Below are positions 14,826-62,857 of a stretch of DNA of 63,984 nt, one piece after another. The position numbers and the translations under genes were made by a program. Numbering within the stretch: position 1 is the stretch's first letter; each line of letters opens with the position of its first letter. Under the pieces are notes generated by a model. It was not told the DNA's origin. It searched no databases and saw only the letters and a program-made list of their open reading frames with translations. This DNA is from Burkholderiales bacterium (GTDB taxonomy: Bacteria; Pseudomonadota; Gammaproteobacteria; Burkholderiales; SG8-41), in assembly GCA_035525455.1 (NCBI GenBank), contig DATLEF010000209.1, positions 1-63,984 of the forward strand, written 5' to 3'.

Positions 14826-14846
14826 AGAGTCGCTGCGTGCGTATAG

Positions 14847-14872: not shown

Positions 14873-14939
14873 GTGTGGAATCCCGAATGCGCTTTGGCGG
14901 GCTTATGCGCCGTGCGGCCCTCACTATAGAATTCGGGTG

Positions 14940-38203: not shown

Positions 38204-38278
38204 TCGACACCTGACTTTAGCGTGCGGGCCGCGTGGCGCCCGCGCGATTCACTCCTAGCCGGACTCGTGCTTCAGCAA

Positions 38279-39397: not shown

Positions 39398-40558
39398 ATG
39401 TCGATTCACCTCATCGTTCTCCTGTGCGCGCTCAGCCATTCGGGCTTCGGCGGCAGCCGCATTGCGATTTCCCTCTATGCGTTGAATCTCGGTGCCACGC
39501 AATTCACGATCGGCGTGCTGATGGCGTTGTATGCCATCTGTCCGCTGCTCATGGCGCTGTATGTGGGCCGGCTTGCCGACCGCGTCGGTCCGCGCATACT
39601 GATGCTGATAGGCTCCGCCGGTGTGACGATAGGGCTCTTGTTACCGCCTCTCTTTCCGGGCTTGCCTGTGCTCTATGTGACGGCCCTGCTTCTCGGCTCG
39701 ACGTTTCTTTTCTTTTTCATCACCGTGCAGGGAATCGCAGGCGGCATCGGCGGCACCGAAAATCGTGCGCGCAATTTCGCCCTCGTCGGTATGGGCTTTT
39801 CCGCGGCAGGATTCATCGGCCCATTCGCCGCCGGCCTTGCAATCGATCATCTGGGGCATGTCCCGGCGTTCCTCGTGCTTGCGGTGTTTCCGAGCGTGTC
39901 CGTGCTGCTCCTGCTGTGCAAGCCCGATTTTCTGCCAAGAGCACGGAAGCACGCGGCCGTATCGGGCAGCCGCAGCGCACTCGACCTGTGGCGCAATGGC
40001 GCGTTACGCAACACGTTTATCGCGAGCGGCATCATTTCCTCGGCGTGGGATTTGTTCTTGTTCTATTTCCCCGTGTATGGACACTCGGTCGGCCTCTCGG
40101 CGTCGGTCATCGGCGCCGTGCTCGGTGTATTCGCGCTGGCAACATTCACGATACGCATCGTTTTGCCGGCGCTGGCGAAGCGTTATTCGGAGTCGCAGGT
40201 GCTGACGGGCGGCATCTTCGTGGCGGCGTTTGCTTTTGTGTTATTTCCGTTTTTCGAAAGCGCCTACGCGCTCGGTGCCAGCGCGTTCTTGCTCGGCCTC
40301 GGGGTAGGCTGCGGCCAGCCTATGTCGATGTCGCTCATTTACGCGCTTGCGCCGCCGGGGCGTCAGGCCGAAGCCGCAGGGCTGCGCGTGACTGCGAACA
40401 ACGTGACCCATCTGGTGATTCCGCTCTTGTTCGGCAGCCTGGGAACGGCGTTCGGCTACATGCCGGTGTTTCTGTGCAATTCCGCAATGCTCGTCGCAGG
40501 TGGGGTGATGATGCGGCGCGCGAAAATCGGTATTTCCCAACATACCTACATCACGTGA
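39398..40558 (+). CDS. MFS transporter
   Basis: 386 aa with about 12 hydrophobic helices. The GRLADRVGPR motif lies between TM2 and TM3. Confidence 0.85.
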   Translation: MSIHLIVLLCALSHSGFGGSRIAISLYALNLGATQFTIGVLMALYAICPLLMALYVGRLADRVGPRILMLIGSAGVTIGLLLPPLFPGLPVLYVTALLLGSTFLFFFITVQGIAGGIGGTENRARNFALVGMGFSAAGFIGPFAAGLAIDHLGHVPAFLVLAVFPSVSVLLLLCKPDFLPRARKHAAVSGSRSALDLWRNGALRNTFIASGIISSAWDLFLFYFPVYGHSVGLSASVIGAVLGVFALATFTIRIVLPALAKRYSESQVLTGGIFVAAFAFVLFPFFESAYALGASAFLLGLGVGCGQPMSMSLIYALAPPGRQAEAAGLRVTANNVTHLVIPLLFGSLGTAFGYMPVFLCNSAMLVAGGVMMRRAKIGISQHTYIT

Positions 40559-41617: not shown

Positions 41618-43633
41618 CTAGTCCTTCAATATTCTGAACAGGTTGTTGTAGTCGTCAGTCCAGACGCCGAGACCGGGTATGGTCTCGATTTCGGTTGCAG
41701 CCGACGTGATTTCCTGCTGACTGAGCAACGCGGGATTCCGCGCAAGCAGCACCCAATCCGTTTTTGCGAGATCGCTTTCTTCGGCTTCGTCGATCACGAG
41801 CACGCTGCGCAGCCTGTACTCATCGGCGATCATCTTGACGACCGGCGCGAGTCGCAGGAATCGGTTCGTCACGTGAAAAGCGAGGATGCCATCCGGCTTC
41901 AGGTGCTTCAGGTACACGGCCATCGCTTCTCGTGTAATCAAGTGCACGGGGATCGAATCGCTCGAGAATGCATCGATCGCGATGAGGTCGTAATTCTGCG
42001 CAGGCTCGCGTTCCATGTTGAGGCGCGCGTCGCCAAGCACGGTCTCGATCGTGGCACGGCTATCGGAGAGATATGTAAACTGCGCGCGAGCGATGCCGAT
42101 CACCTGGGGATTGAGCTCGTAGAACCGGTAGACATCGCCAGGACGGCCATACGCTGCAAGCGTGCCGGTACCGAGGCCGACTACAGCCACGCGCAGCGGA
42201 TTCGCGCTGAGTCGTGCGATCGCCCGTCCGATGCCTGAGCTCGGCCCGTAATAGGTAGTCGGCTCTGTCCGACGTTTTTCGGAAAGATACTGCTCGCCAT
42301 GCATGATGACGCCGTGCATGAGCCTGCGCACGCCGTCCGCGCCGGAGCCCACGTCGCGCACGCGCAGCGTCCCGTAAAAATTACGGGTCATGACTCGTGC
42401 GTTGCGGGACAGCGATTCCACATATGCGTACACGTGGTACGCGGTAAAGCCTGCGGCGCAAACCACGAGCAGCGGCACGAAAAAAGGCATTCGCCGCACC
42501 AGCGCTGCGGCGAGCAGCAGTGTGATGACCAGTCCTACCCCAAACTCGTAGTAAGTCGGAAAGAGCCGCGGTGCCACAAATCCCACGAAGAAGCCGCCCA
42601 ACGCACCGCCCAGTGACACCATCAGATAGAAGCTCGTCAGGTAACGCGGCGCCGGTTTCATGTCGGCGAGCTCTCCGTGAAAAAACATACAGCACACGAA
42701 AAGACCTGCGGAGAAGAGCGCCACCGCCTCTTTAATATCGTGAATGCTGCGGTCCGCGTGCAGTGCCCACGCCATAGCTGCTGCGACCATGATCAGCGGT
42801 CCGAGAAAAATATTCCGCCGGTACCATCCGCGCCCTTCGAAACACAGGATGAAGGTCAGGAGATAAATAGTGAGCGGCAGGATCCACAGGAAGGGCACTG
42901 AGGCGACGTCGTGCGTGATGTGGTTCGTCACGGCCAGCAGCATGAACGAGCCCATCGCCGACAGGAGCAGCCATAGCGCAAACTCGCGCGGCATCGGCCG
43001 GGGACCTTCGTTCATGGTCGCGATCGTCGCAGCGGCCGGGCTTCCAGTCGGATGGGATCGCAGACTGTATACGGCTGCGCCAGCGCAGAGCAGCACAAAC
43101 ACACCGTACGCGATGCTCCAACCGACAGACTGGCGCACGGTGCTCACCCATGGCTCGAGCACGAAAGGGTATGACACGAGCGCGAGCAGAGACGCCAGAT
43201 TCGACAACGCGAAAAGACGGTATACCGTGCCAGCGGGAAAGCTGCGGGTGAACCAGGCCTGTACCAGCGGACCTGTCGTCGAAAGAAGGAAGTACGGCAA
43301 GCCGATCGTAGCAGTGAGCAATCCAAGAATGCGCCATGCCGGCTCTTCATCGCCGGCGGGCTTCCATGCAGCGCTCGCAATTATGGGAAGCGAGGCAAGG
43401 CTCAGTAGCAGCAGCGCAATATGCAGCCCGACCTGGTGAGTCGCTTTCAGGCGGCGTGTGGTCCAGTCCGAGTACGCGTAACCGAACAGCAGCAGGAACT
43501 GAAAGAACACGAGACAGGTCGTCCAGACTGCGGCGGAGCCACCGAACCACGGCAGGATTTGCTTCGCCATGATCGGCTGCACGAGGAACAGCAGAAACGC
43601 GCTCGCGAAGATGGTCAGCGCGTAAAGTATCAT
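41618..43633 (-). CDS. Fused membrane domain / spermidine-synthase-like (class I MTase fold) protein
   Basis: The N-terminal ~430 aa are polytopic. The C-terminal part (VAVVGLGTGTLAAYG...YDLIAIDAFSSDSIPVHLIT...LKPDGILAFH) is aminopropyltransferase-like. Confidence 0.7.
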   Translation of the reverse strand: MILYALTIFASAFLLFLVQPIMAKQILPWFGGSAAVWTTCLVFFQFLLLFGYAYSDWTTRRLKATHQVGLHIALLLLSLASLPIIASAAWKPAGDEEPAWRILGLLTATIGLPYFLLSTTGPLVQAWFTRSFPAGTVYRLFALSNLASLLALVSYPFVLEPWVSTVRQSVGWSIAYGVFVLLCAGAAVYSLRSHPTGSPAAATIATMNEGPRPMPREFALWLLLSAMGSFMLLAVTNHITHDVASVPFLWILPLTIYLLTFILCFEGRGWYRRNIFLGPLIMVAAAMAWALHADRSIHDIKEAVALFSAGLFVCCMFFHGELADMKPAPRYLTSFYLMVSLGGALGGFFVGFVAPRLFPTYYEFGVGLVITLLLAAALVRRMPFFVPLLVVCAAGFTAYHVYAYVESLSRNARVMTRNFYGTLRVRDVGSGADGVRRLMHGVIMHGEQYLSEKRRTEPTTYYGPSSGIGRAIARLSANPLRVAVVGLGTGTLAAYGRPGDVYRFYELNPQVIGIARAQFTYLSDSRATIETVLGDARLNMEREPAQNYDLIAIDAFSSDSIPVHLITREAMAVYLKHLKPDGILAFHVTNRFLRLAPVVKMIADEYRLRSVLVIDEAEESDLAKTDWVLLARNPALLSQQEITSAATEIETIPGLGVWTDDYNNLFRILKD

Positions 43634-45056: not shown

Positions 45057-46021
45057 TCCGCTTTGATTCCTGCTGTGCGTACGACCTTGGCCCATTTGGC
45101 GACATCGACTCTGATGCGCTCAGCGAGCTGTTCGGGGCCGCCGGGCGAGACAAACCCACCGACGGTGAGCAGCCGCTCCTTCACATCCTGCAGCGCTAGC
45201 GCTTTCTGTACGTCCGCGTTGAACTTCGTCACGATCTCCCGCGGTGTGCCGGCCGGCATCATGACCCCGAACCAGGAGTCGGCCTCGAAGCCTTTCAGAG
45301 ACTCACCGATCGTCGGTACCTCGGGAAGCGCAGGCGATCGCGTCGACGATGCGACACCAAGCGCGCGCACTTTGCGCGATTTCACGTGCGGCAGCGCGGA
45401 AGGAATACTGTCGAAGAAAAGCGCGACGTGGCCGGCGATGAGATCTGCTATGCCCGGAGCGCTGCCTTTGTAAGGCACGTGCAGCGCAGTGAATCCGCCC
45501 ATCTGCTTGAGCATCTCCTGCTCGAGATGAGACAGCGTGCCGGGGCCTTGCGACGCAAAATTGAGTGCACCCGGCTGTGCTTTGCCCAGCGCAATGAGCT
45601 CCTTCACGTTGCGCGCGGGCAGCGTTGGATGGGCTACGAGTATGTGTGGCACATTGCCAACGAGCGATACCGGCACGAGATCTTTTTCGAGGTTGTAATT
45701 CAATTTCGCATACGTGCTCATTCCGATCGCGTTGGTCGTCACCGCGGCCATGACCGCGGTGTATCCATCAGGCGCGGCTTTGGCTGTGAGCTCGAGACCC
45801 AGATTGCCGCCTGCACCAGGCCGATTGTCGACGATCACCTGGTGTCCCCATGCATCACCGAGTTTCTGCCCGAGCGTGCGCGACAATAAATCCGCCGCAC
45901 CGGCCGGGGGGAAAGGCACGATAAGCCGCACTGCTTTCGCAGGATAAGTTTGTGCTTGCAGTGGATGCGCCGCCAGCGTCGCGCAGCAGGCGATGAATAG
46001 CGACCACAACGCACGACGCAT
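45053..46021 (-). CDS. Bug-family (TctC-like) tripartite tricarboxylate transporter substrate-binding protein
   Basis: ATG at 46021. Signal peptide, then YPAKAVRLIVPFPPAGAADLLSRTLGQKL...VDNRPGAGGNLG. Confidence 0.88.
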   Translation of the reverse strand: MRRALWSLFIACCATLAAHPLQAQTYPAKAVRLIVPFPPAGAADLLSRTLGQKLGDAWGHQVIVDNRPGAGGNLGLELTAKAAPDGYTAVMAAVTTNAIGMSTYAKLNYNLEKDLVPVSLVGNVPHILVAHPTLPARNVKELIALGKAQPGALNFASQGPGTLSHLEQEMLKQMGGFTALHVPYKGSAPGIADLIAGHVALFFDSIPSALPHVKSRKVRALGVASSTRSPALPEVPTIGESLKGFEADSWFGVMMPAGTPREIVTKFNADVQKALALQDVKERLLTVGGFVSPGGPEQLAERIRVDVAKWAKVVRTAGIKAE

Positions 46022-46079
46022 GAGACATCTCCGATTGGCGTGCGTGATCGGTGATAGCCGCAACCGCGCGTCGGCGAAC

Positions 46080-46174
46080 TGGCGGAAGAGAGTGGGAGTC
46101 GAACCCACGCAGGACCGCCTGCGGCCCCTACCGGGTTTGAAGTCCGGCCGCCCCACCGGGAGCGATTCCCTTCC
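46080..46174 (-). tRNA. selC: tRNA-Sec (anticodon UCA), CCA encoded
   Basis: The reverse complement is GGAAGGGAATCGCTCCCGGTGGGGCGGCCGGACTTCAAACCCGGTAGGGGCCGCAGGCGGTCCTGCGTGGGTTCGACTCCCACTCTCTTCCGCCA (95 nt). It has an 8-bp acceptor stem and a long variable arm, and is nearly collinear with E. coli selC. Confidence 0.95.
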
Positions 46175-46237
46175 GTTATTGAAACTATGAGCTGATGCGT
46201 GGGACTGCGTGAGGCGGGTTTACACCGACCAGTGCTG

Positions 46238-46423
46238 CTAGCCGAGCTGTTTGTTCGGCTCGGCTCGAGCAACCACGCTGTTGTATTGCCGCACGAACTG
46301 AAGGGCTACGGCAGCTGCGCGTTTGTCTCCGTTCGTGAAAGCGGTTGCGTATTGCTGGAGCCAGTAATCCCTGCGGCCGTCCTGAGACCCTGCTTGTATG
46401 TTGCTGCTTGTGTTCTCAGCCAT
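46238..46423 (-). CDS. Hypothetical 61-aa protein between the TrxR-like gene and selC
   Basis: ATG preceded by an AAGGGGGA Shine-Dalgarno. No recognisable motif. Same orientation as the sel genes. Confidence 0.45.
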   Translation of the reverse strand: MAENTSSNIQAGSQDGRRDYWLQQYATAFTNGDKRAAAVALQFVRQYNSVVARAEPNKQLG

Positions 46424-46506
46424 GACATCCCCCTTACTGGAAGAACCAAGATTTTACAACGGTGTGCTTCGTGATTGAAGCTTGCGTTTCGCTGCGCATC
46501 CGTCCG

Positions 46507-47412
46507 CTATATGAGCGCTTGTTGCAGCGCGGCAGCCGCCCGTCGTGCGTCATCGAGCGCAGCGCCCAAAGTGCCGCCGAACTGGCTGCGCACGGCGCCG
46601 ATCGCGGAGACTCCCGCGACGTTCGTCTGCAACGCATCATTAACGCGCAGGAAACGGTTCGCATCGCGCTCGACATCATTCGCCAGAAATTCCACGTTGG
46701 GCTCGAGACCGATGTAGGCGAAAACACCTGCGCACGGCAGGTCCTCGGTGCGGCCGTCGGCGTGTTTCAACTGGGCCTTCTCGACCATTTTGGAGCCGTC
46801 GATCGCCTGAACGGTTGCATTCCAGATAACCCGAATCTTGTCGTTGGTTCGCACCTGGTCGGCAAAATGCGGTGTGCCGGTGAATGTATCTCGGCGATGT
46901 ACCAGAGTCACCCGCCGACAGTACTGCGCGAGCACCAGCGCTTCCTGCAGTGCCGAGTCTCCACCGCCGACCACGATGACTTCTTCGTTCTGATACATGG
47001 GCCCGTCGCAATCGGCACACTGGGAAACGCCGCGGCCCTCGTATTCCGCTTCGCCGGGAACGCCCAGCTTTTTCAAGCGTGCGCCGGAGGCGACGATGAC
47101 GCAGCGGGCGCGATACGACCCGGACGCGGTCACGATCTCTTTTTGATCACCGTTATTGCGTACGAGCGTCACCGGCTCCTGAATGCTCGTGACACCCGCT
47201 TCGGCGTTCGCCTGCATCATTCCTGCAGCGAGCTCGGCACCCGATGTCGGCTGGCCTGCGGGAACCGGATCGAGCTCGTTCACATTGATGACGAGGCCCC
47301 CGAAGAGCTGTCCTTCGATCGTTGCGACTTTGAGTCCGGCCTGGGCGAGCATGCCGGCGGCGCTGAGCCCGCTCACGCCCTCGCCGATCACGATTACGTC
47401 ATGAATAGACAC
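46507..47412 (-). CDS. Thioredoxin-reductase-like FAD/NAD(P)H disulfide oxidoreductase
   Basis: DVIVIGEGVSGLSAA (FAD), redox-active CADC (compare TrxB CATC), VVGGGDSALQEA and HRRD (NADPH). It starts 12 nt after the selB stop. Confidence 0.85.
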   Translation of the reverse strand: MSIHDVIVIGEGVSGLSAAGMLAQAGLKVATIEGQLFGGLVINVNELDPVPAGQPTSGAELAAGMMQANAEAGVTSIQEPVTLVRNNGDQKEIVTASGSYRARCVIVASGARLKKLGVPGEAEYEGRGVSQCADCDGPMYQNEEVIVVGGGDSALQEALVLAQYCRRVTLVHRRDTFTGTPHFADQVRTNDKIRVIWNATVQAIDGSKMVEKAQLKHADGRTEDLPCAGVFAYIGLEPNVEFLANDVERDANRFLRVNDALQTNVAGVSAIGAVRSQFGGTLGAALDDARRAAAALQQALI

Positions 47413-47424
47413 GTGCGTATCCCT

Positions 47425-49425
47425 TTATCGTCGGTATGTTTGAAGCGGCCGCCGCGGAGGTCCCGTGGGCTTGGCCTGTGCTTTTGCGGGCGGCCGCTGG
47501 ACTGGGCTCGCTGCACCCAGTATCGGCACAAAATCCTTCCGCATCTTGCGCGCATCGCCAAGGCGCTGAGTAATGCCGAGCGTGTCCAGAAATTCGAGGA
47601 TCTCGATCGCGAGGCTGCGTCCAACTCCGGTCGCATCACGGTATTGGGCTGCAGTGAATTGCCCGTTCGGCTGCCCCTGCGCCGTAGCCTGAGCGATCGC
47701 CGCGAGTGTCGCCAGCGTAGACCGCGTGTAGAAGCGATCGGCCGTGACCTTGAGCACTTCGCCGCTCTTCGCTTTGCGATGAAGAAAATCCTTGACGATG
47801 CCTTCCTTCAATTTGACCTGCAGCGCAAGCTCGCGCAGCGGCGGCGAGTTGAAACCGGCGCTTTCGAGCGCCGGCCGAACAGTCTGCCACATTCGATCGT
47901 CCGCGGCGTTCGCCGTCGCGTCGTGGCCCGCGATGCGCGCGGTCGAGCCGCTCGCCTCTATTTTGCGCTCGTCCGTGAGACGTCTCAGAAACGAGCCGAA
48001 CATGTCAGCGCTCAGGTCCGGCGCAACCGATCTGCGCAGCGTTTCCACTTCCTGCCCCACTGCCTGTGGGTGCTCGCTGTGGAAGCGCAGGAGCTCCGCA
48101 ACGATGGCTTCCTGTAATGCCTGGTAATGTCCGCGTGTGACAGCGACCCGCGCATCTTTGCCTAACTGCACGAGCTCCGCATTCGCGTAGAGTTGCGTTG
48201 CACGCTCCCGCGTCAGGTTGTACACCACCTCGAAACGCCGCAGATCGATCACGCGCTCGCCGGTGCGCAGCAATTCGGACAGCGCGGTCTCGGGCGCGTC
48301 GTGCTCGAGCGCTGCGAGCTCGACCTTGCGCGCTGGGGACGTGCGGCGCGTCGCCGGAGCGAATGGGTCGAGGACGAAGCCGCCGCCTATGGTGCGCGTG
48401 GCTGACTGGTCGCGCAGAATGAACCGATCACCTCGCAGTGCGCAAATCGGCTGATCGAGCACGAGCTGGGCCACCGCCCCAGTACCCGGCTCAAGCGCTG
48501 TCCCTTGCCGGGTGGCGATACGCGCGGTTACATCACTGGTTGCAAGATGCAAATGGACCGGCGTCCAATGCTCGAGCGCACGAGCTTCGGCGCCCAATAC
48601 CGTCACGCGAGCGTCGAGGCGTCGAGTCGGGCGATGGAGCTCAGGCGCGACAACCCAATCCCCGCGATGCACGGCTTCGAGACCGGCGCCCGTCAGATTG
48701 AGCGCGCAGCGTTCACCCGCTGATGCGCCCTGTGCAACGTCGCCCTTGATCTGTATGCCCCGCACACGCACTTCCTGCCCCGCCGGCGAGACGACGAGCT
48801 TGTCGCCCACCTTCACGACTCCGTTGAAAACCGTGCCGGTAACCACCGTGCCGCTGCCGGCCACACTGAACGTGCGGTCGACTGCGTATCTGAAATTCTG
48901 GCCCGCGGATAGCCGGGCCGAATGCTGCATCGCTTCCGCAATAAGAAGCTCGCGAAGCTCCGTCATTCCGGATCCGGTGACAGCCGAAACCGCTATCACC
49001 GGCACATGCGCGAGCTGGGTGCTCTGAACGAGCGCGGCGACCTGCTGCTCGACTTCGCGAACACGATCGCTGTCAACGCGATCGGTTTTGGTAATGACTG
49101 CCACGCCGCGATTCACGTGCAGCAGATCGAGGATATGCAGGTGCTCTATCGTTTGCGGCATGATGCCATCGTCCGCTGCCACGACGAGCAACGAGAAATC
49201 GATGCCGCATACGCCTGCCAGCATGTTGCGTATGAAGCGTTCGTGGCCCGGAACGTCAACGAAACCGATCAGCTTGCCGTCAGGCAGCGGCAGATACGCA
49301 AAACCCAGGTCGATCGAGATGCCGCGCGCTTTCTCTTCCGGCAGACGGTCGGTGTCGACGCCGGTCAATGTCTTCACGAGCAACGTCTTGCCGTGATCGA
49401 TATGGCCTGCAGTCGCGACGATCAT
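47425..49425 (-). CDS. selB: Selenocysteine-specific translation elongation factor SelB
   Basis: MIVATAGHIDHGKTLLVKTLTGVDTDRLPEEKARGISIDLGF...DVPGHERF and a long winged-helix C-terminal extension. 666 aa. Confidence 0.93.
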   Translation of the reverse strand: MIVATAGHIDHGKTLLVKTLTGVDTDRLPEEKARGISIDLGFAYLPLPDGKLIGFVDVPGHERFIRNMLAGVCGIDFSLLVVAADDGIMPQTIEHLHILDLLHVNRGVAVITKTDRVDSDRVREVEQQVAALVQSTQLAHVPVIAVSAVTGSGMTELRELLIAEAMQHSARLSAGQNFRYAVDRTFSVAGSGTVVTGTVFNGVVKVGDKLVVSPAGQEVRVRGIQIKGDVAQGASAGERCALNLTGAGLEAVHRGDWVVAPELHRPTRRLDARVTVLGAEARALEHWTPVHLHLATSDVTARIATRQGTALEPGTGAVAQLVLDQPICALRGDRFILRDQSATRTIGGGFVLDPFAPATRRTSPARKVELAALEHDAPETALSELLRTGERVIDLRRFEVVYNLTRERATQLYANAELVQLGKDARVAVTRGHYQALQEAIVAELLRFHSEHPQAVGQEVETLRRSVAPDLSADMFGSFLRRLTDERKIEASGSTARIAGHDATANAADDRMWQTVRPALESAGFNSPPLRELALQVKLKEGIVKDFLHRKAKSGEVLKVTADRFYTRSTLATLAAIAQATAQGQPNGQFTAAQYRDATGVGRSLAIEILEFLDTLGITQRLGDARKMRKDFVPILGAASPVQRPPAKAQAKPTGPPRRPLQTYRR

Positions 49426-50831
49426 CGACTGAAATCCAGGTTACCGAGCTGGGCGACGAAACCGTGCTCGTCGTCGAGGCAGCGCAGGTCCATCAGAAAA
49501 GCGCCGTCTTTGATGCGGCCGATGACGGGCACGGGCAAAGCACGAAACGCTTTAGCGATGATCTGCACGGCGGACGTTTTGTTTTTTCCCGTACTGACGA
49601 TCGCGATTCCGGCGCTGGGCAGCGATTCGACCGGCAGCGAGCCGCTTCCGATCTGGCTCGCGCACTGAATGACCGTAGCGCTCGCTTTGCCATTGAGGAC
49701 GGCAAGGATGCGCGGCAAGAGGCGCGCAGCAAGCGCTTCCAATTCAGCGACTGGACGCGTGAGTGCGGACATTATGGGCAATTCGTCTTTCAGCCGCTGC
49801 GGGTTGGCATAAAGCTGCAATACGGATTCCAGAGCAGCCAACGTCATCTTGTCGACTCTCAGCGCGCGTTTCATCGGGTTCTTCTTGATGCGCTGGATCA
49901 GATCTTTGCGGCCGACGATGAGACCCGCCTGCGGGCCGCCGAGAAGCTTATCGCCGCTGAACGTAACGATGTGGGCGCCCTGCGCGAGCGCTTCGCGCGG
50001 CGTAGGTTCGTGAGGCAGGCCGTATTCTTCCAGATCGACGAGCGTGCCACTTCCCAGATCGACGATGAAGGGCAGCTCGTGTTTGCGCGCAAGGGCTGCG
50101 AGATCCGCTTCGGAAACGGCCGCAGTAAAGCCCTGGATCGCATAGTTGCTCGTGTGCACCTTCATGATGGCTGCGACGCGCGGCCCGATGGCGTCGGCAT
50201 AATCCCTGGGGTGCGTGCGATTCGTTGTGCCAACTTCGTGAAGCTTGCAGCCCGCGCGCGACATGATGTCGGGAATGCGAAACGCGCCTCCAATTTCGAT
50301 CAACTCTCCGCGCGAGACGAGGACTTCCTTTTTCGCCGCAAGCGTATTCAACACGAGATATACGGCCGCCGCGTTGTTGTTGACCACTACGGCGCTCTCG
50401 GCACCGGTCAGTCTCGTCAGCCAACGCTCGACGTGCTGATCGCGTTCGCCGCGAGCGGCGCCGTCGAGATCGAATTCGAGGTTAACCGGACGCGTCATCG
50501 CCTGCACGACGGCGTCGGCGGCGCAGCGCGGCATGACCGCGCGCCCGAGATTGGTATGCAGCACCGTGCCGCTGAGATTGAAAACAGGCTTCAGTGACGG
50601 TTGGGCGTCCTGGATCAGCTGTGTTGCACAACGTTCAATGAACGCGGCTTCGTTGAAGCTCCAATCGGCTCGTTCGCCGAGTGCAGCGCGCTCGCGATCG
50701 AGCTGCGTGCGCAAAGCGTCGACTACGAGCGGCCTGCCATAGCGCGAGACTAAAGTCGCGACGCGCCTGTCGTTGAGAAGCCGATCGACCGCTGGAAGCG
50801 CGCGACGCGCGGCCGCAGCCGTGTTCAGCAC
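49422..50831 (-). CDS. selA: L-seryl-tRNA(Sec) selenium transferase SelA
   Basis: GTG start. NLSGTVLHTNLGRA, GELIEIGGAFRIPDIM, KVHTSNY and FSGDKLLGGPQAG (PLP lysine). ATGA overlap with selB. Confidence 0.93.
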   Translation of the reverse strand: MLNTAAAARRALPAVDRLLNDRRVATLVSRYGRPLVVDALRTQLDRERAALGERADWSFNEAAFIERCATQLIQDAQPSLKPVFNLSGTVLHTNLGRAVMPRCAADAVVQAMTRPVNLEFDLDGAARGERDQHVERWLTRLTGAESAVVVNNNAAAVYLVLNTLAAKKEVLVSRGELIEIGGAFRIPDIMSRAGCKLHEVGTTNRTHPRDYADAIGPRVAAIMKVHTSNYAIQGFTAAVSEADLAALARKHELPFIVDLGSGTLVDLEEYGLPHEPTPREALAQGAHIVTFSGDKLLGGPQAGLIVGRKDLIQRIKKNPMKRALRVDKMTLAALESVLQLYANPQRLKDELPIMSALTRPVAELEALAARLLPRILAVLNGKASATVIQCASQIGSGSLPVESLPSAGIAIVSTGKNKTSAVQIIAKAFRALPVPVIGRIKDGAFLMDLRCLDDEHGFVAQLGNLDFSR

Positions 50832-51028
50832 GGCTGCAGGCGAAGTCGAATGAGTGGAGGCGGAGCCGGAAAGCCTGCTCTGCGCGATAACAGCATGGCA
50901 ACGGTGGAGCGTGTGGAGCGCGCTAGTTTAACTCAAGCACGGAGCGCAATCTAATCGATACGCGGCCGGCGTCGAGGGCATGTGCTCGCGAAAACCCGCG
51001 CTGGTGCGCGGCTTTTGCTCTGCTGCGG

Positions 51029-51802
51029 TTACTCCCAAAGCCTTTCGGGCAGCGGCAGCCCCGCCAGATCCTGAGGCGTCGGGCGCCGCTCGGGCTGTAT
51101 GCCGTAGCGCTCCAATACGGCGGCGAGTTGGCGCGCGTGCTGCGCGGAATGCCACGTCGAGCGCTCCAGGAGCTGATGCATCGGCTGAGGTCCGTAGAAC
51201 GTGGGGGCGTTCTGCGTGCAGGATTTGTCCGCGAGCTGCGACCACCATGTTTCGAGGCGGGCGATGACCTGATCGCCGTAGTCCGCGACATGCTTACCCG
51301 TCGTAAAGGTGCCTTCGGCGGGCGGTACATTGGCGTGCTGGACCGCGTACACCACGTTATCGTTTACCGTCTCGAGAAACGCTTCGCCGATGCGGAAAAC
51401 ATGATGCGCGAGCAGCCGTAGGGCGCGATCGCGATTGGGAATCACGCGGTCGCTCATCTTGTCGTCTGGAATCTGACGTATCAGGCTTTGCGCGATACGC
51501 AGGACGTTGGTCCATTTGGCAATGAGCTCGTGCGGCGGTAACGGTGTGTGCCCCGTGCCCTGGAGGCCGACGAACTCGGCAACATCTTCGAGATTCTGTC
51601 CGAAGACGAATTGCCCGCCCTTCGATACGACCGGCACGTTACGCACGCCGAGCTTGAGCAAACGCTCGCGGCCGCCGGCATCGTTCAGCACGTCGACTGC
51701 GTCAAACTCGATGCCTTTGCGCGAAAGAAACTCTTTCGCCCGTAGACAGCTGCTTCAGCCGGGCTGTGTAAAGAGAACGAATCTGTCTGCGACGGTGTTC
51801 AT
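51029..51802 (-). CDS. Candidate selenoprotein: glutaredoxin-like (U-S-S-C) domain fused to a DinB-like domain; in-frame TGA (Sec) at 51755-51757
   Basis: Track ORFs 51755..52000(-) and 51029..51691(-) share a frame and are separated only by the TGA. Read-through gives MNTVADRFVLFTQPG-U-SSCLRAKEFLSRKGIEFDAVDVLNDAGGRERLLKLGVRNVPVV..., a complete Grx/NrdH fold. The C-terminus has DinB-like His residues. The sel genes are adjacent. The start could also be ATG 51820. Confidence 0.75.
51721..51739 (-). promoter_or_regulatory. Candidate bacterial SECIS hairpin
   Basis: The mRNA reads UGA + 15 nt, then GCGAAAG AGUUU CUUUCGC (7-bp stem). The apical loop contains G-U, about 24 nt after the UGA. Confidence 0.5.
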
Positions 51803-51911
51803 GGGGGATCCAGAGAGCATGAAAAGGGAATGCAAGGCTACTCCCGCGCTATTCGCAGCGTCAAGGCGGGAGACATCGCGGCGTGCGTAGTGCGCGAGGC
51901 GCAGCAAGGCG

Positions 51912-53063
51912 TTACTGATTCGGCTCAGCGCGAGTGCCCGCGGGACATCCGCTTTGCGACGCGGCAGCGTGATCCTTTTGCGCGGATTCGATGATCCCAC
52001 CGCCGAGACATACCCGGCTTTCGTAAATCACGACCGACTGCCCGGGTGTCACCGCCCACTGTGCCTCTGCGAAGTCCACGACACAGTGCTCGCTATTCAC
52101 GTCCACTATCGTACAAGGCGCATCCTTCTGGCGGTATCGCGTTTTCGCTCCGTACACCCATTGGCAATGGGGAACAGTTCCGGCGATCCAGTTCAGCCGC
52201 ACTGCGCTCACCTGGAGTGAATACAACGCGCGGCTCTCGCGTCCCTGTACCACGACGAGGCGATTGCGCTTCATGTCTTTGTCGACGACGTACCAGGCAT
52301 CGCCGTCGCCGTCGCGCTGCCCGCCGATGCGAAGGCCCTGGCGCTGGCCCAAGGTATAAAACATTAGGCCCATGTGCTCGCCGACGATGCGTCCATCCAG
52401 GGTGTAGATCTCGCCCGGATTGGCAGGCAGATAGCGGTTCAGAAATTCCCGAAACGGCCGCTCACCTATGAAACAGATTCCCGTGGAATCGCGCTTGTCG
52501 TGATTCGGCAGCCCTTCTCGCCGTGCGATATCGCGTACCTCACGCTTGTACAGGCCACCCAGCGGAAAGAGCGTCTTCGAAAGCTGCCGCTGGTCGAGCC
52601 GATACAGAAAATAGGTTTGATCCTTCGATCCGTCTTCGGCCTTGACGAGCTGATACAGACCGTCCACTTCACGAACGTGCGCATAATGACCGGTCGCGAT
52701 GTAGTCCGCGCCCAGCGTCAGCGCGTGATTGAGGAATGCGCGAAATTTGATTTCCGCGTTGCACAGCACGTCCGGATTCGGCGTGCGTCCGGCACGATAC
52801 TCGGACAGGAATTCGCTGAACACGCGCTCTTTGTATTCGGCCGAAAAATTGACGGCGTCGATTTCGATGCCGATGCGGTCGGCGACGGCAACAGCGTCCA
52901 CGAGGTCCTGTCGCGAGCTGCAATACTCGTCGTTGTCGTCGTCTTCCCAGTTCTTCATGAAAAGACCGACGACCTCGTGCCCCTGCTGCTTGAGCAGCAG
53001 CGCTGCGACCGCCGAGTCGACACCGCCCGAGAGGCCCACGACGATACGTTTTCTTGCCGGCAT
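51912..53063 (-). CDS. mnmA: tRNA 2-thiouridine(34) synthase MnmA
   Basis: [18 protein letters not shown] (PP-loop), [16 protein letters not shown] and TGHYA motifs. Confidence 0.94.
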
Positions 53064-53133
53064 GGGAACGTTGGATGGCAGTCAGGAGTAGGAAGGGCGG
53101 GTGCCTGTAGCGCGCGGCTTATTCTAGCGAAAT

Positions 53134-53160
53134 AAAAAAGGCAGGGCTTGCGGCCCTGCC
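53134..53160 (-). terminator. Intrinsic terminator downstream of the 65-aa Lys-rich protein gene
   Basis: ggcagggc...gccctgcc 8-bp stem. The minus strand is followed by T6. Confidence 0.7.
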
Positions 53161-53180
53161 TTTCGAACGAGTGAGCTGGA

Positions 53181-53378
53181 TTACTTCTTGACGGCTTTTT
53201 TCTCGTCGGCGCTTGCTTTCTTGTCGTCGGCCTTCGACTTCTCGGCCTTTTTCGCATCCCCTTTCGACTTCTCGGACTTCTTCTCTTCCGATTTCCTCGT
53301 GTCCTGCGCGAATGCGACCGGAGTCACAGACGCCACAGCAAAGAAAGCGGCCACCAGAGCGGACAGGAGCTTCATCAT
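53181..53378 (-). CDS. Small secreted Lys-rich protein (65 aa)
   Basis: Signal peptide MMKLLSALVAAFFAVASVTPVAFA, then a KSEEKKSEKSKGDAKKAEKSK low-complexity region. A terminator follows. Confidence 0.55.
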   Translation of the reverse strand: MMKLLSALVAAFFAVASVTPVAFAQDTRKSEEKKSEKSKGDAKKAEKSKADDKKASADEKKAVKK

Positions 53379-53490
53379 GATGTTTCCCTTTTTTTGATTG
53401 AAGAATAACGCAGTGACCGGAATGATCGGTCACGGCCATTAACGGACGAGGTAAACCCGGTTGACAGTGATGTCCGCGCGACAGCGTCGC

Positions 53491-54108
53491 CTACTGGCGA
53501 CCCTCTCTGATGCGCCCGCGATGAGCTGCACTGCGTGCCGGCGGCGGACGCCTGGATGCAGGAGACTCGACTTCGATCGCGCGCCACTGCCCCGGCGCCA
53601 GGCCCTCAATCGTCCAATCGCTGACGGAGTAGCGGATGAGACGCAGTGTCGGCAGCCCGACTGCGGCAGTCATGTGTCGCACCTGGCGATTCTTGCCCTC
53701 TTGCAGACGAAGCTCGAGCCAGGCCGTGGGAATCGCGCGACGCTCGCGGATCGGCGGCGTGCGCGGCCACAACCACAAAGGCTCGTCGGCGAGCCGTGCT
53801 TCGGCCGGTTGCGTCGTGATCTCGCCCAAACGCAGTCCCTGCCTCAGCTGGTCGAGCGCGTTTTCAGAAGGCACGCCTTCGACTTGCACCAGATATGTTT
53901 TTGCATGCTTATGGCGCGGATCGGCTATTCGGTGCTGCAGCGCGCCGTCAGCGGTCAGTAATACGAGACCTTCGCTGTCAGCATCGAGGCGGCCGACAGG
54001 GTAAACGTTCGCGTGCGGAATGAAATTCTTGAGCGTCTGGCGCCCTGCCTGGGGACTGAACTGGCACAGGACGCCGTAGGGCTTGTTGAAGAGCACTACG
54101 GCGCTCAT
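53491..54108 (-). CDS. rluE: 23S rRNA pseudouridine synthase, RsuA/RluE family
   Basis: ATG at 54108. [13 protein letters not shown]...[20 protein letters not shown]...[11 protein letters not shown]...[14 protein letters not shown]. Confidence 0.85.
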
Positions 54109-54362: not shown

Positions 54363-54548
54363 CTACCCGATGCTGGAAGCAGCGCAACACGGTATAATTT
54401 TTGTTTTGCGGCCGGCGTCTTTCAGGACGCATTTCCCCGCTGTGGCGTCGGGTCCTGAGCCAACTGGAATTCGGGGAGTGGCTGCCTTCCAAGGCATCTG
54501 TTACGTCAGCCCACCACGCTACTGCCCACTGAACGGAGAAGGAAAACC

Positions 54549-55925
54549 ATGACTGAACGACTCGACCTGCTGAAGATCGCGCAGGAAGAACAGAGCGGTG
54601 ACCTGTTCAAGTATCTGGACAGCATTTACAAGAGATCCAAGACACAGCCCCGTGGCATTGCGGACGCGGTCATCTGGGAGGGCGGGAACCCCGCAGGCAA
54701 CGTAAAGCCCGTTGCCCATGCTTTTACCGATATGTTTGCGCTCAACGGCACCTTGATGGCGCTCGACGTGCTGGGCTTGCCGTTCCTCGGCGTGCCGATG
54801 ATGGCGCAGTACCGGCACGACACCAATCTCGCACCGCTCGAATGGTTCGGCAAGCTCGATGCAACGGCGATCAAGTGGTCGACGGCTGGCGATGCGCTGG
54901 TGAACGACAACGGTAAAAAGGTCGTGGTCAAAGGCAAGTCGGCGAATGCGCCGCTGCGCACTGCAGCGGGGGTGTATTGCAACGTGCGCCCGTACGGCAC
55001 CATAACCAGCGTACGTTTCATGCCGGGCCTGCCGTACTCGCAGGACAGCAAGAAATTCCGCGTCGACCGCGATAGCGGCAACATCCATTCGGAAATGAAC
55101 ACGCCCGGTGTGCGGATGGCATACGCGGTGCGCCTCTTCCTGAAGATGGTGCACGAGACCGGACACGTCGGCCGCATTGCGACCAAGCCTACCCAAGCCC
55201 AGGAAGACGCCGTCAACGCCGGCATCGTCCGCTGGCTGCTCCAGGGCACGAAGTTCCAATTGAAACGCCAGTACGCCGTCGACGCCTACGCCGAGCACAA
55301 AGCGAACGTCGATGCGATCGTCGCGCTGCTGCCCAAGGACTTCAAAGCCGGCATGGAGAATTGGGGCGGCGAGATTAACGAGCACATCTCCGACACCAAC
55401 TTCGGAATTCTGCTGCACGACATGTATCAGCAGCGCAATGCGATCGTGTACGCAACCGACCTGGACGGTGATCGCCTGACCGATCTCATGGCTGACGGGC
55501 CCGACGTGCTGCGCGGCTGGGGCCAGAAGATCCTCGACCACGTAAAGGCCGGCGTGGACATGAAACAGGTCTGGAAAGACATGGGCTTCACCATGACGAA
55601 CGGAAAAGACATGACGAGCGTCATGTACCGCATCGAGGGTGCGCCGATTTTCGAGCAGACGCTGGGCTCAGCGGACGCGATGTTGCTGCGCCTGCTCGCC
55701 GGGGATGAGACAGTCGGCGGCGAGAAACAGCCTTACGATCCGCGGATTCATTTCGTTCTGATTAACGAGGCCTACAAGGCCGCGAATCCGGGCAACACTG
55801 AATTCGCGCGCTGGCTCGATGCGCAGCTTGCGACGTTCGACAAGCTTTACAGCGGCAAGCGGCCGCGCTATCTCGAGGGTTACAACAAGCTGAAAGAGGC
55901 GATCAAGCCCTGGGGTACAAAGTAA
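54549..55925 (+). CDS. Hypothetical soluble protein, 458 aa, no family recognised
   Basis: Long ORF with protein-like composition and native codon bias. No signal peptide, TM helix or catalytic motif that I recognise. The antisense ORF has the Arg/Ala/His/Val-rich composition typical of artefacts. Confidence 0.7.
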   Translation: MTERLDLLKIAQEEQSGDLFKYLDSIYKRSKTQPRGIADAVIWEGGNPAGNVKPVAHAFTDMFALNGTLMALDVLGLPFLGVPMMAQYRHDTNLAPLEWFGKLDATAIKWSTAGDALVNDNGKKVVVKGKSANAPLRTAAGVYCNVRPYGTITSVRFMPGLPYSQDSKKFRVDRDSGNIHSEMNTPGVRMAYAVRLFLKMVHETGHVGRIATKPTQAQEDAVNAGIVRWLLQGTKFQLKRQYAVDAYAEHKANVDAIVALLPKDFKAGMENWGGEINEHISDTNFGILLHDMYQQRNAIVYATDLDGDRLTDLMADGPDVLRGWGQKILDHVKAGVDMKQVWKDMGFTMTNGKDMTSVMYRIEGAPIFEQTLGSADAMLLRLLAGDETVGGEKQPYDPRIHFVLINEAYKAANPGNTEFARWLDAQLATFDKLYSGKRPRYLEGYNKLKEAIKPWGTK

Positions 55926-59210: not shown

Positions 59211-59244
59211 TATAATGCTCTCGCTGCGTCACCGGGGAAAACGC

Positions 59245-59595
59245 ATGAACCTGTCCATTCCGCAGGCGTTTGGTTTTTCCGCTCTCTGCTCATTCGGCTT
59301 GGTGTTCTCCGCCGCCGCCCAGGATTCGAACGCGGGGCGCAATCTCGCCGCCAACTGCTTTACCTGTCACGGCACCAACGGCAACAGCGCCGGCGGTGTC
59401 CCGCCGAGCCTGGCAGGCCGTGCGCACGCCGAGCTCTTTCAGACGATGAAGGACTTCCAGTCCGGCAGTCGGCCCGCCACGATCATGCATCAGCAGGCGA
59501 AAGGCTATAACGACGAGCAGCTGCAGCTCATCGCTGCTTATTTTGCCGCGCAGAAACCGGCGCCTGCGCGCGTGCCGCCCAAAGCCTCAAACTGA
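59245..59595 (+). CDS. fccA: Monohaem c-type cytochrome, flavocytochrome c sulfide dehydrogenase small subunit (FccA/SoxE-like)
   Basis: ATG at 59245; signal peptide; CFTCHG haem site. It lies directly upstream of fccB. Confidence 0.75.
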   Translation: MNLSIPQAFGFSALCSFGLVFSAAAQDSNAGRNLAANCFTCHGTNGNSAGGVPPSLAGRAHAELFQTMKDFQSGSRPATIMHQQAKGYNDEQLQLIAAYFAAQKPAPARVPPKASN

Positions 59596-59605
59596 GGAGC
59601 ATGAA

Positions 59606-60904
59606 ATGCCCTTCTCCCGACGCGAATTCCTGAAGTGGATTTCGGCGAGTGCCGGCGCGACCGCGCTTGGCGGTTGCGAATCCCCTGGCGCGCCGCGCAC
59701 TGCGGTCGATGCACCCGCGCGCGCTGCTGCACGAGTCGTGGTCATCGGCGGCGGCTATGGCGGCGCCACTGCGGCCAAATACGTGAAGATGTGGGCGCCG
59801 GATGTCGACGTCGTGCTGGTCGAGCGTAGCACGCGATTTATTTCGTGCCCCATCAGCAACCTCGTGCTCGCCGGTAACACGACCATGCAGGAGATCACCA
59901 TGGGTTACGACGCGCTGCGGGCACGCGGCGTGCGCGTAATCCACGACGACGCGAGTGCCATCGATGCAGATCGGCGCCAAGTCCGACTGGCGAGCGGTGT
60001 TGTCCTCTCGTACGATCGCGCGATCGTGTCGCCCGGAGTCGACTTCATGTACGACCAGATTCCGGGTTTACGCAGTGCCGAGGCCCAGCAGCGCATCCTG
60101 CACGCGTGGAAAGCGGGTGAGCAGACGATTGCGCTCCGCAAGCAACTCGAAGCGATGCCGGACGGCGGCGTCTATGTGCTGCAGATTCCAGTGGCGCCCT
60201 ATCGCTGCCCGCCCGGGCCATACGAGCGCGTCTGTCAGGTTGCCGATTATTTCAAGCGCGCGAAGGCGCGCTCGAAAATTATCGTCCTTGATGCGAATCC
60301 CGACATCGTGTCGAAGAAAGGCCTCTTTCTCCAGGAATGGAACGGCGCGTACAAAGGCATGATCGAGTACCGGCCGAACAGCGAGCTCGCCGACATCGAC
60401 GTGCGAGGCATGACGGTGAAGCTCCAGTTCGAGGACGTGAAAGGCACAGTCATCAACGTTGTCCCGCCGCATCGCGCGGGCGACATCGCTCAAAAGAGCG
60501 GTCTTATCACCGCGAATCAGCGCTGGTGTGGTGTGGATTGGCTCACCGCCGAATCAGTCGCAGTCAAGAATGTCCACGTCATCGGAGATTCGACGCTATC
60601 GGCCTCGGCGATGCCGAAATCGGCGAGCATGGCGAACCAGCACGGCAAGCTTTGCGCGGCCAGTGTGGTCGCGCTGCTCAAAGGCGAGCCGGTGAATCCG
60701 AACCCGGTCATCATGAATACGTGCTACAGCTTCGTGAGCCGCAACAGCGCGATGCACGTCGCGTCAGTCCATCAATACGACGCGAAGGAAAAAACGCTGT
60801 TGCCCGTCAAAGGCGCCGGTGGCGTTTCCGACAAGGCCTCGGAGATCGAAGGTTCTTACGCGTGGGGTTGGGCAAGAAACATCTGGGCGGATGCGCTCGC
60901 CTGA
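59606..60904 (+). CDS. fccB: Flavocytochrome c sulfide dehydrogenase flavoprotein subunit (FccB/SoxF)
   Basis: Tat signal MPFSRREFLKWISASAG. VVVIGGGYGGATAAKY (FAD), the CPISN and YRCPPGPYER redox Cys motifs, and VHVIGDS. Confidence 0.85.
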   Translation: MPFSRREFLKWISASAGATALGGCESPGAPRTAVDAPARAAARVVVIGGGYGGATAAKYVKMWAPDVDVVLVERSTRFISCPISNLVLAGNTTMQEITMGYDALRARGVRVIHDDASAIDADRRQVRLASGVVLSYDRAIVSPGVDFMYDQIPGLRSAEAQQRILHAWKAGEQTIALRKQLEAMPDGGVYVLQIPVAPYRCPPGPYERVCQVADYFKRAKARSKIIVLDANPDIVSKKGLFLQEWNGAYKGMIEYRPNSELADIDVRGMTVKLQFEDVKGTVINVVPPHRAGDIAQKSGLITANQRWCGVDWLTAESVAVKNVHVIGDSTLSASAMPKSASMANQHGKLCAASVVALLKGEPVNPNPVIMNTCYSFVSRNSAMHVASVHQYDAKEKTLLPVKGAGGVSDKASEIEGSYAWGWARNIWADALA

Positions 60905-62657: not shown

Positions 62658-62857
62658 GTCTTTGGTAGTAAATCGATCCGCCGCAGTGCGTTTACGCACA
62701 TACGCGATTCCCCCCGGGGCCCTAGCCTTGGCTTACCCTGACATACGGATCGTGGCGCGCCGCTCAGGCATCAGCCCGGCTGTTCGCGCGACTTCAAACA
62801 GTTTTGAGCCTATCGACTGCAAGGCTTGGCGCAACAAAGCGGCCTGCCGTTTCGACC

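Follow-up and report, generated by a model that had tools for sequence, protein, structure and literature searches.

A glutaredoxin-DinB fusion gene with an in-frame UGA codon in the sel cluster of a Burkholderiales bacterium: a probable and widespread selenoprotein gene

Does the UGA codon that interrupts a reading frame directly upstream of selA and selB in a Burkholderiales bacterium end translation after a short leader peptide, or is it decoded as selenocysteine (Sec)? The gene concerned lies on the minus strand of contig DATLEF010000209.1 (assembly GCA_035525455.1), whose analysed stretch of 63,984 nucleotides is referred to as the window, and it would encode a glutaredoxin/NrdH-like redoxin (Grx) fused to a DinB/YfiT-like domain. 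A preliminary description of the window had proposed that the UGA joins two open reading frame (ORF) fragments into one selenoprotein with a U-S-S-C redox centre. Comparison with related loci leads us to regard this UGA as almost certainly the Sec codon of a genuine selenoprotein gene, and the data solidly support the view that the Grx-DinB selenoprotein is real, widespread and mis-annotated. The explanation that we favour as a whole, Sec decoding together with the redox or transferase mechanism proposed below, has by our own estimate a probability of roughly 0.88.

Conservation of the UGA codon and of the frame around it

Read on the minus strand over 50900-52100 and translated, positions 51029-51802 form one frame of 258 codons in which the TGA at 51755-51757 is the sole interruption, with no other disruption of the frame. 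The two ORF fragments of the preliminary description, 51755..52000 (-) and 51029..51691 (-, with a GTG start), do share this frame; their 5' ends are 309 nt apart in the ORF list, a single TGA lies between them, and our read-through translation from ATG 51802 is identical to the earlier one, letter for letter. The GTG at 52000 was considered as a start codon and rejected, as it lies inside the 3' end of mnmA and conservation among orthologues begins only at the Met of ATG 51802, which for this reason we take to be the true start. Residues 1-257 are covered by orthologues in 80 loci. TGA is the ordinary stop of 10 of the 24 annotated genes of the window, and the genetic code is therefore standard and not reassigned.

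A genome scan with one genome per species identified 223 encoding loci, the best 80 of which were retrieved and compared; the hosts of these are mainly metagenome-assembled genomes (MAGs) of Betaproteobacteria/Burkholderiales, and Binatia and Deltaproteobacteria account for a few. At the aligned position all 80 species-level loci have TGA, as do 28 more distant metagenome loci; the identity of the encoded proteins to that of the window is 68-81% in the former and lower still in the latter. Conservation of the protein extends over more than 100 environmental bacteria. In 80/80 loci the motif Met-x(4-6)-F-[VI]-L-F-T-Q-P-G-TGA-S-S-C is kept, with L as the residue after S-S-C, and downstream of the UGA the conserved stretch reads S-S-C-L-R-A-K-E-F-L. 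The region 5' of the Met is not conserved among the loci. The conserved residues upstream of the UGA are written with varying synonymous codons, two for F, six for L, four for T, two for Q, four for P and four for G. Since these codons vary synonymously while the amino acids are kept, the 15-residue upstream peptide is under selection at the protein level and in this frame. The conservation of the 15 N-terminal residues, on which the proposal of a selenoprotein partly hinged, thus holds, with synonymous variation within them and nonconserved sequence before the Met. Nor do the homologues genuinely start downstream of the TGA, as the segment from the Met to the TGA is conserved in each of the 80 loci.

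What occupies this position where it is not specified by UGA? The part of the protein that follows the UGA was searched exhaustively against 1.84 billion cluster representatives, which gave 860 relatives; 46 that appear full-length (247-283 aa, with a 721-aa fusion in addition) were taken from these and 45 aligned. A C-x-x-C motif aligns with U-x-x-C in 44 of these 45 homologues, which are 29-48% identical, its commonest form being Q-P-G-C-[ST]-S-C-L-[RK]-x-K-E-F-L. A profile search added at least 120 further full-length relatives with a Glutaredoxin domain, which, where the source gives them a name, are called 'glutaredoxin' or 'glutaredoxin/uncharacterized damage-inducible protein DinB'. When metagenomes were scanned with a seed taken from a distant branch, the codon proved to be TGA in 28 loci and TGC or TGT in 15, and thus Sec and Cys forms are, by this evidence, interleaved across the family. 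The TGA therefore stands, as had been asserted, where the N-terminal nucleophilic Cys of a CxxC motif belongs, and a Cys is indeed aligned with it both in the full-length homologues and in the 15 metagenome loci.

Current annotations of the gene follow a different reading. A protein search in which U was replaced by C gave 3553 relatives; the top 120, which were inspected, are all 205-238 aa long and start 3' of the UGA, at V38 or at a Met or Leu at position 20, the gene calls being typically truncated proteins of 220 or 238 aa. Named close relatives, all of them truncated products, are labelled 'hypothetical', 'DinB family' or 'glutaredoxin domain-containing' protein. An internal start that varies between V, M and L is the pattern of miscalled selenoprotein genes, which are routinely mis-annotated because the UGA is taken as a stop. 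Reading the UGA as Sec would correct the annotation across widespread environmental Betaproteobacteria.

A putative SECIS hairpin behind the UGA codon

By the established bacterial mechanism, SelB-GTP carrying Sec-tRNA(Sec) would bind a hairpin on the translating mRNA and insert Sec at the UGA. A candidate for such a selenocysteine insertion sequence (SECIS) begins 15 nt 3' of the UGA and lies within codons 22-27 (A-K-E-F-L-S). It has a stem of 7-8 bp and a 3-nt loop that opens with G-U and starts 23 nt after the UGA, and it folds with -10.8 kcal/mol. The published model of bacterial SECIS (bSECIS) elements describes an apical loop of 3-9 nt, an upper stem of 4-16 bp, a G in one of the first two loop positions that is usually followed by G or U, a distance of 16-37 nt from the UGA to the loop and a minimum free energy of -7.5 kcal/mol or lower (PMC13188914, Fig. 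2 legend). Compared point by point, the hairpin at 51721-51739 agrees with this model in every respect; the SECIS check suggested in the preliminary description is hence positive against the published model, which, rather than the bSECISearch program, is the basis of this result.

In our judgement the strongest evidence for a SECIS element is the invariance of synonymous sites in the hairpin together with the comparison of Sec and Cys forms. In 81/81 distinct sequences the codons GCG-AAA-GAG-TTT-CTT-TCG are each the only one used at their position, TTT and CTT being minority Phe and Leu codons elsewhere in that alignment, and all other invariant residues between codons -8 and +49 are written with 2-6 codons each. 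The 15 Cys-form genes that were read encode K-E-F-L by AAG GAA/GAG TTC/TTT CTN, from which the hairpin cannot form. In more distant Sec forms the closing pair is G-C, A-U or G-U, according to lineage, and one locus (L089) carries a compensatory change of C-G to U-A, GUGAAAGA-GUA-UCUUUCAC. RNAalifold, applied to 20 sequences, recovered the 7-bp hairpin with zero covariation, because the hairpin is invariant in that clade. A lower pairing of UGAAG with CUUCG, also proposed by RNAalifold, is weakly supported and is not claimed here.

This type A hairpin is present in 93 of 110 Sec-form sequences. The remaining ones have a type B hairpin with a longer stem, in which L-R-V codons pair with S-A-R codons, and with the same GAG-UU apex. 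Type B occurs in distant Sec forms (L090-L128; for example L092:4001-4696), where the lower stem is formed by CUCCGGGU (L-R-V) and GGCCCGUG (S-A-R), and two SECIS designs thus occur within a single Grx-DinB protein family.

Domain structure, gene neighbourhood and proposed function

The positions of the gene, of its elements and of the adjoining genes are given in Table 1.

Table 1. Positions in the window of the putative selenoprotein gene, its elements and the genes of the sel cluster
Feature	Position	Strand	Description and evidence
Putative selenoprotein coding sequence	51029..51802	-	257 residues + TAA; reads MNTVADRFVLFTQPG-U-SSCLRAKEFLS...GLPLPERLWE
Start codon ATG	51800-51802	-	Translation
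Stop codon TAA	51029-51031	-	Translation
TGA, codon 16	51755..51757	-	Candidate Sec16, N-terminal nucleophile of the U-S-S-C motif
Predicted resolving Cys19	51746-51748	-	U-S-S-C motif
Putative bacterial SECIS hairpin, GCGAAAGA-GUU-UCUUUCGC	51721..51739	-	Folding, codon invariance and Sec/Cys comparison
Glutaredoxin/NrdH-like thioredoxin-fold domain	51563..51784	-	About residues 7-80; cis-Pro motif V-P57-V; Pfam, PDB profiles, Foldseek
DinB/YfiT-like four-helix-bundle domain	51083..51541	-	About residues 88-240; PDB profiles, Foldseek
Putative metal-binding His triad	H134 51401-51403; H218 51149-51151; H222 51137-51139	-	Alignment to DinB structures
mnmA	51912-53063	-	Upstream of the selenoprotein gene
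selA (L-seryl-tRNA(Sec) selenium transferase)	49422..50831	-	Next gene downstream; Pfam SelA 2.5e-159
selB	47425..49425	-	GTP_EFTU, Beta-barrel_SelB, SelB-wing_2/3 (winged-helix, SECIS-binding); overlaps the selA stop
Low-Mr thioredoxin-reductase paralogue	46507..47412	-	301 aa; C132-A-D-C135; TIGR01292, PDB matches
selC, tRNA-Sec, anticodon UCA	46080..46174	-	ARAGORN; Rfam RF01852 75.8 bits

Both domains named in the preliminary description are found again by independent means. The N-terminal one matches Pfam PF00462 over residues 9-66 with 51.4 bits against a cutoff of 22.9 (U replaced by C), and its profile matches in the PDB are cGrx1 (7c10), NrdH (1h75) and BC3987 (3zij), with E values down to 1e-12. 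For the C-terminal one, the Pfam DinB_2 match (PF12867, residues 132-226) reaches 22.9 bits and stays just below the gathering threshold of 24.8, and the assignment rests for that reason on the comparison with PDB profiles (6iz2, 3gor, 3di5, 2hkv and 3dka) and on that of folds; precomputed PF12867 matches are present on many orthologues and Cys homologues. The fold comparison refers to an AlphaFold2 model of the closest Cys homologue (P0123, 48% identical) and not of the window protein itself, with a predicted local distance difference test score (pLDDT) of 94.5 and a predicted template modelling (TM) score (pTM) of 0.90. Foldseek matches its N-terminal domain with BC3987 and cGrx1 (TM 0.86-0.91), confirming the glutaredoxin/NrdH-type fold, and its C-terminal domain with YfiT 1rxq, DR0053 6iz2 (TM 0.82), 2p1a, 3gor, 3di5 and mycothiol-dependent maleylpyruvate isomerase (MDMPI) 2nsf/2nsg. 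An NCBIfam scan of the window protein gave no model at its cutoff. The Grx/NrdH equivalogs stay far below theirs, and the models of named glutaredoxin-like selenoprotein families also fall short (score/cutoff: Uxx_star 41/66, Uxx-star family 1 23/72, family 2 26/100, family 3 27.6/97, HUGP/GUXX-star 22.8/325).

The residues on which a function would depend are well kept in the aligned full-length homologues. Hardly any change is seen at C16, C19 and P57 and none at H222, and conservation is 90% or more at H134 and H218. In the alignment to 3gor and 3di5, H134 falls on the His of LATHML/VAWHIV and the pair H218/H222 on DHEIHH/NHQNHH. Within the conserved motif E-R-x-x-W-H-x-x-Q-H-x-R-Q, E213, R214, W217, Q221, R224 and Q225 are invariant or nearly so, as is the C-terminal motif G-L-P-x-P.

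The position of the gene directly upstream of selA-selB-...-selC, remarked on already in the preliminary description, is confirmed, and the arrangement is conserved in related loci. Loci in Burkholderiales-type MAGs have the order mnmA, Grx(U)-DinB, none to several inserted genes (often one for a TctC receptor), selA, selB, the thioredoxin reductase (TrxR)-like gene and tRNA-Sec, the last of which was found 3' of its TrxR-like neighbour in 17 of 21 related loci of Burkholderiales type that were scanned. No formate dehydrogenase gene was found among the window ORFs of at least 200 aa, and no other selenoprotein gene either, in agreement with what had been stated earlier. The TrxR-like protein matches TIGR01292 with 246 bits, below the equivalog cutoff of 343, its best PDB matches are thioredoxin reductases (5uwy, 4e-55), and its C-A-D-C-D-G motif is invariant in 42/42 related loci. 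The canonical redox motif of TrxB is CATC or CAVC. Judged by these features, the product of 46507-47412 is a TrxR paralogue and not clearly TrxB. In one Cys-form locus a TrxR-family gene, whose product is 33% identical to that of the window, lies directly 3' of the homologue, and the pairing of redoxin and reductase thereby appears independently supported.

Away from the Burkholderiales clade the neighbours differ. Three of the seven Cys-form loci that were read (L081, L083 and L086) combine genes for SDR, Grx-DinB, TctC, MmgE/PrpD, an ADP-forming acyl-coenzyme A (CoA) synthetase and an NAD-binding dehydrogenase, and the homologues include a 721-aa MmgE/PrpD-Grx-DinB fusion (P0213). This MmgE/PrpD/TctC theme, together with the fusion, hints at a place in organic-acid metabolism for at least part of the family. 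A consistent functional partner was not found, the distant Sec forms being heterogeneous in their surroundings and the Cys forms sharing the MmgE/PrpD/TctC theme only in part.

Some further observations concern the cluster itself. In nearly all Burkholderiales-type loci mnmA is directly 5' of the selenoprotein gene, an adjacency that may be plain synteny; MnmA is the tRNA 2-thiouridylase, whose product s2U is the substrate for 2-selenouridine synthesis. GC-rich hairpins with T-runs are found on both sides of the selenoprotein gene, at 51826-51845 (-) between mnmA and the start codon and, possibly bidirectional, at 50996-51011 between the stop codon and selA, and the gene may therefore be transcribed apart from selA and selB. 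A 61-aa ORF in the interval between the TrxR-like gene and tRNA-Sec (46238-46423 (-)) has a good Shine-Dalgarno-like sequence; it has no tblastn match in related loci and is probably no gene.

A second gene with an in-frame TGA is present in the sel cluster of 13 related MAG loci (L029, L008, L013, L014, L028, L032, L039, L046, L052, L067, L070, L072 and L073). It encodes about 600 aa (L029:9840-11648 (-)); its N-terminus matches Pfam UGSC (PF24696) with the motif IGA-U-G[AS]C-TPAVLRA, the codon being TGA in 13/13, and no Pfam family is matched by the roughly 400 aa that extend its C-terminus. The UGSC selenoprotein family being known already, this would seem to be a long and fused member of it, and the window contains no homologue of the gene.

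How might the Grx-DinB protein work? Going by the chemistry of its domains, the U-x-x-C centre probably acts in a redox or transferase role. In the mechanism that we propose, the DinB site made up of His134, His218 and His222 would bind or activate the substrate, such sites in solved relatives binding a divalent metal, and the selenolate of Sec16 would be the nucleophile that attacks the substrate at this metal site. Candidate substrates are a disulfide, an oxidised sulfur or selenium species, or an electrophile. The fused redoxin would replace the free low-molecular-weight thiol that is used by stand-alone DinB/YfiT enzymes. Cys19 would then resolve the adduct, giving a selenenylsulfide, and the TrxR paralogue with its CADC motif would reduce the latter again with reduced pyridine nucleotide, as thioredoxin reductase does for NrdH-type redoxins. 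We see about an even chance that this paralogue is the reductant of the U-x-x-C centre. One may go further and suppose that Grx(U)-DinB and the CADC paralogue constitute a dedicated two-protein selenol redox system, forming a cassette with selA-selB-selC, in which a DinB domain works with a protein-borne selenol and which is a principal reason why a large clade of soil and freshwater Burkholderiales keeps the Sec trait, a role played by FdhA elsewhere. This wider supposition we put forward as speculative and rather doubtful; if true, it would mean a new catalytic logic for DinB/YfiT proteins and the first DinB-type selenoenzyme.

Several observations weigh against our account, some bearing on the Sec pathway and the reductant and others on the hairpin. 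A selD gene was not found in the 64-kb window, in which ORFs of at least 200 aa were examined. The distant Sec forms from metagenomes have no sel or TrxR genes within 4 kb, as is also the case in the vicinity of three Binatia/Deltaproteobacteria loci, and the neighbourhoods of these distant forms are heterogeneous, with assorted catabolic genes. In the TrxR paralogue, the nucleotide-binding motif, canonically HRR, reads HRG at most loci, so that its electron donor is uncertain and may not be NADPH. Within the main clade there is no variation in the 7 core bp of the hairpin, whose support there comes from the invariance of synonymous sites and not from covariation; only 2 of the 8 hairpin pairs show two-sided changes, a count that was reached by 8 of 500 shuffles; and the fold of the 71 nt that follow the UGA has a z score of -1.17, which is not significant alone. 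Finally, an Rfam scan of 45500-53500 (E <= 1) gave no match to a SECIS family, tRNA-Sec being the only significant hit. This null result says little, however, because from gene to gene the SECIS elements of bacteria have little sequence in common (PMC13188914).

Could the UGA then be an ordinary stop after all, ending a leader of 15 residues that is followed by a separate, truncated DinB protein made from an internal start (GTG 51691, or a Met or Leu after the UGA in relatives)? The public gene calls of 220 and 238 aa do begin after the UGA, and TGA does terminate other genes of the window. But the truncated product would be deprived of β-strand 1 and of the first active-site residue of an otherwise complete thioredoxin fold that is modelled with confidence, and the internal start changes among relatives both in residue (V, M or L) and in position. 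Moreover, the 15 upstream codons are selected in frame at the protein level, full-length Cys homologues exist, and the synonymously invariant hairpin follows the codon in the UGA forms only. We therefore hold an ordinary stop to be very improbable. A TGA is also just one base away from TGC or TGT, as a pseudogene or an error of sequencing or assembly would have it; here the comparative data effectively refute the idea, given that TGA is present in 80/80 species-level genomes and 28 metagenome contigs, at identities of 68-81% or lower and in an otherwise intact frame. With the UGA conserved and the sequence upstream of it under selection, neither a pseudogene nor an assembly error nor a leader peptide with a truncated protein is tenable.

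If Sec is inserted, the protein may still serve an end other than the one proposed above. A selenoprotein that handles selenium within the Sec pathway, by reducing selenite or selenodiglutathione or by delivering selenide to SelD, would account for the tight and conserved linkage with selA, selB, the TrxR paralogue and selC in the Burkholderiales clade and would make sense of a putative metal- or metalloid-binding His triad beside a selenol/thiol pair; in addition, the first step of selenite reduction in selenoprotein synthesis is reported to fall to the thioredoxin system (PMC8538045). We nevertheless regard such a role as quite unlikely, because the Cys forms and the distant Sec forms are not near sel genes but near genes for SDR, TctC, MmgE/PrpD, acyl-CoA synthetase, CoA-transferase and P450, because of the MmgE/PrpD-Grx-DinB fusion P0213, and because the clustering of a selenoprotein gene with sel genes is known for FdhA and needs no link to selenium supply (PMC5029168). 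Another reading is a selenoprotein that works, like the DinB-fold enzyme MDMPI, as a thiol(selenol)-dependent isomerase or lyase, its substrate being an organic acid or CoA ester that is unsaturated or branched, with the nucleophile supplied in cis by the redoxin and no net redox turnover. The fold does resemble that of MDMPI (2nsf/2nsg), the TctC gene is often directly 3' of the Sec form, and besides the 721-aa fusion there are the 3/7 Cys-form neighbourhoods with SDR on one side and TctC-MmgE/PrpD-acyl-CoA synthetase-dehydrogenase on the other. Yet the nearly invariant resolving C19 and the adjoining TrxR paralogue point to redox cycling, other neighbourhoods lack the MmgE/PrpD theme, and genes for TctC (Bug) recur in these loci, that of the window included, so some of the adjacency may be due to chance. 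On balance an isomerase or lyase seems to us unlikely, and we prefer to assign the U-x-x-C centre a redox or transferase function.

Other genes of the window and comparison with known systems

Outside the sel cluster, the gene at 38222-39250 (+) encodes an EgtD-like histidine methyltransferase dependent on S-adenosylmethionine (Methyltransf_33, 5e-115) and is followed by one for an MFS transporter (39398-40558 (+)). The selenium cluster is about 7 kb away from it; no EgtB/FGE-sulfatase match was found among the Pfam-scanned ORFs next to it, and a link to the chemistry of hercynine, ergothioneine or selenoneine would be conjectural. The product of 59543-60904 (+) resembles the flavoprotein of flavocytochrome c sulfide dehydrogenase (FCSD_central, FCSD-flav_bind), and a 126-aa ORF (59215-59595) precedes it. 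Large ORFs with no Pfam match are located at 54519-55541 (-), 41618-43633 (-), 13713-15584 (-) and 62810-63868 (-). The first of these, of 340 aa, is conserved with 41-64% identity in most related loci and so is a real gene; the ORF overlapping it at 54549-55925 (+) is probably spurious.

Is the Grx-DinB selenoprotein a known one? An inventory of 119 prokaryotic selenoprotein families from 2026 has no DinB or Grx-DinB entry (PMC13188914). The deep-Sep and BSepDB papers do not contain the term 'DinB', and homology-based catalogues such as BSepDB may hold members of the family under 'Grx'. Literature searches that combined DinB with selenoprotein, selenocysteine, selenium or glutaredoxin returned nothing relevant. 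In the literature, the inventory and NCBIfam we thus found neither a DinB/YfiT selenoprotein nor a Grx-DinB architecture nor a TrxR paralogue within a sel cluster. The gene would therefore add a combination of redoxin and DinB/YfiT domains that neither belongs to the 119 inventoried families (PMC13188914) nor is covered by an NCBIfam model. The DinB/YfiT superfamily, which is poorly understood, would gain a member with a built-in selenium nucleophile, so that the chemistry of the fold could be approached by experiment through the comparison of Sec and Cys forms, and the compact cassette of selenoprotein gene, selA, selB, reductase gene and selC, with its short SECIS element, should be useful for studying and engineering Sec insertion.

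With Sec-containing glutaredoxin the protein would share the thioredoxin fold, the Sec placed first in a U-x-x-C motif after β-strand 1 and decoding by an in-frame bacterial SECIS element. It differs from the known Sec-containing glutaredoxins, which we take to be stand-alone, glutathione-dependent proteins of about 85 residues, in that it has 257 residues, a redoxin nearer to the NrdH/BC3987 type and a fused DinB/YfiT domain. In Table 1 of PMC13188914 the Sec-containing form (Grx, PF00462, UxxC) has the status of experimentally verified, with reference to Kim et al. 2011, Mol Microbiol 79:1194. Sec-glutaredoxin is accordingly an established family, U-x-x-C thioredoxin-fold selenoproteins are the commonest kind, and the insertion of Sec at this locus would be entirely conventional.

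The best structural and profile matches of the N-terminal domain are the NrdH-redoxins and BC3987 (1h75, 4hs1, 3zij). The TrxR paralogue in the cluster is in keeping with such a match, since it is from thioredoxin reductase that NrdH redoxins receive their electrons. Unlike the window protein, however, NrdH and BC3987 have neither Sec nor a fused domain and serve ribonucleotide reductase, and there are no nrd genes here. The C-terminal domain has in common with the YfiT/BstA bacillithiol S-transferase 1rxq, DR0053 6iz2 and MDMPI 2nsf the four-helix bundle and an H...HxxxH arrangement at equivalent positions; sequence similarity to these relatives is marginal (22.9 bits in Pfam; 12-18% identity in fold alignments). 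Characterised DinB/YfiT members employ a thiol nucleophile at the metal site, in the form of free low-molecular-weight thiols such as bacillithiol and mycothiol, and we know of no characterised member with a fused redoxin. The protein is also reminiscent of glutathione S-transferases (GSTs) and CLIC proteins in its layout, in which helix 1 of an N-terminal thioredoxin-fold domain starts with the active-site Cys and the second domain is entirely helical; GSTs and CLIC1 are among the Foldseek matches over the whole length. The helical fold is a different one, and with a root mean square deviation of 10-18 Å and TM 0.25-0.35 in these alignments the likeness is one of layout, not of descent.

The closest parallel to the arrangement of the genes is with the fdhA-sel clusters, sometimes single operons, of organisms in which FdhA is the only selenoprotein (PMC5029168). 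Here as there, a selenoprotein gene stands together with the genes for Sec decoding. In the cluster described here, Grx(U)-DinB takes the place of FdhA, a TrxR paralogue is added and selD is missing.

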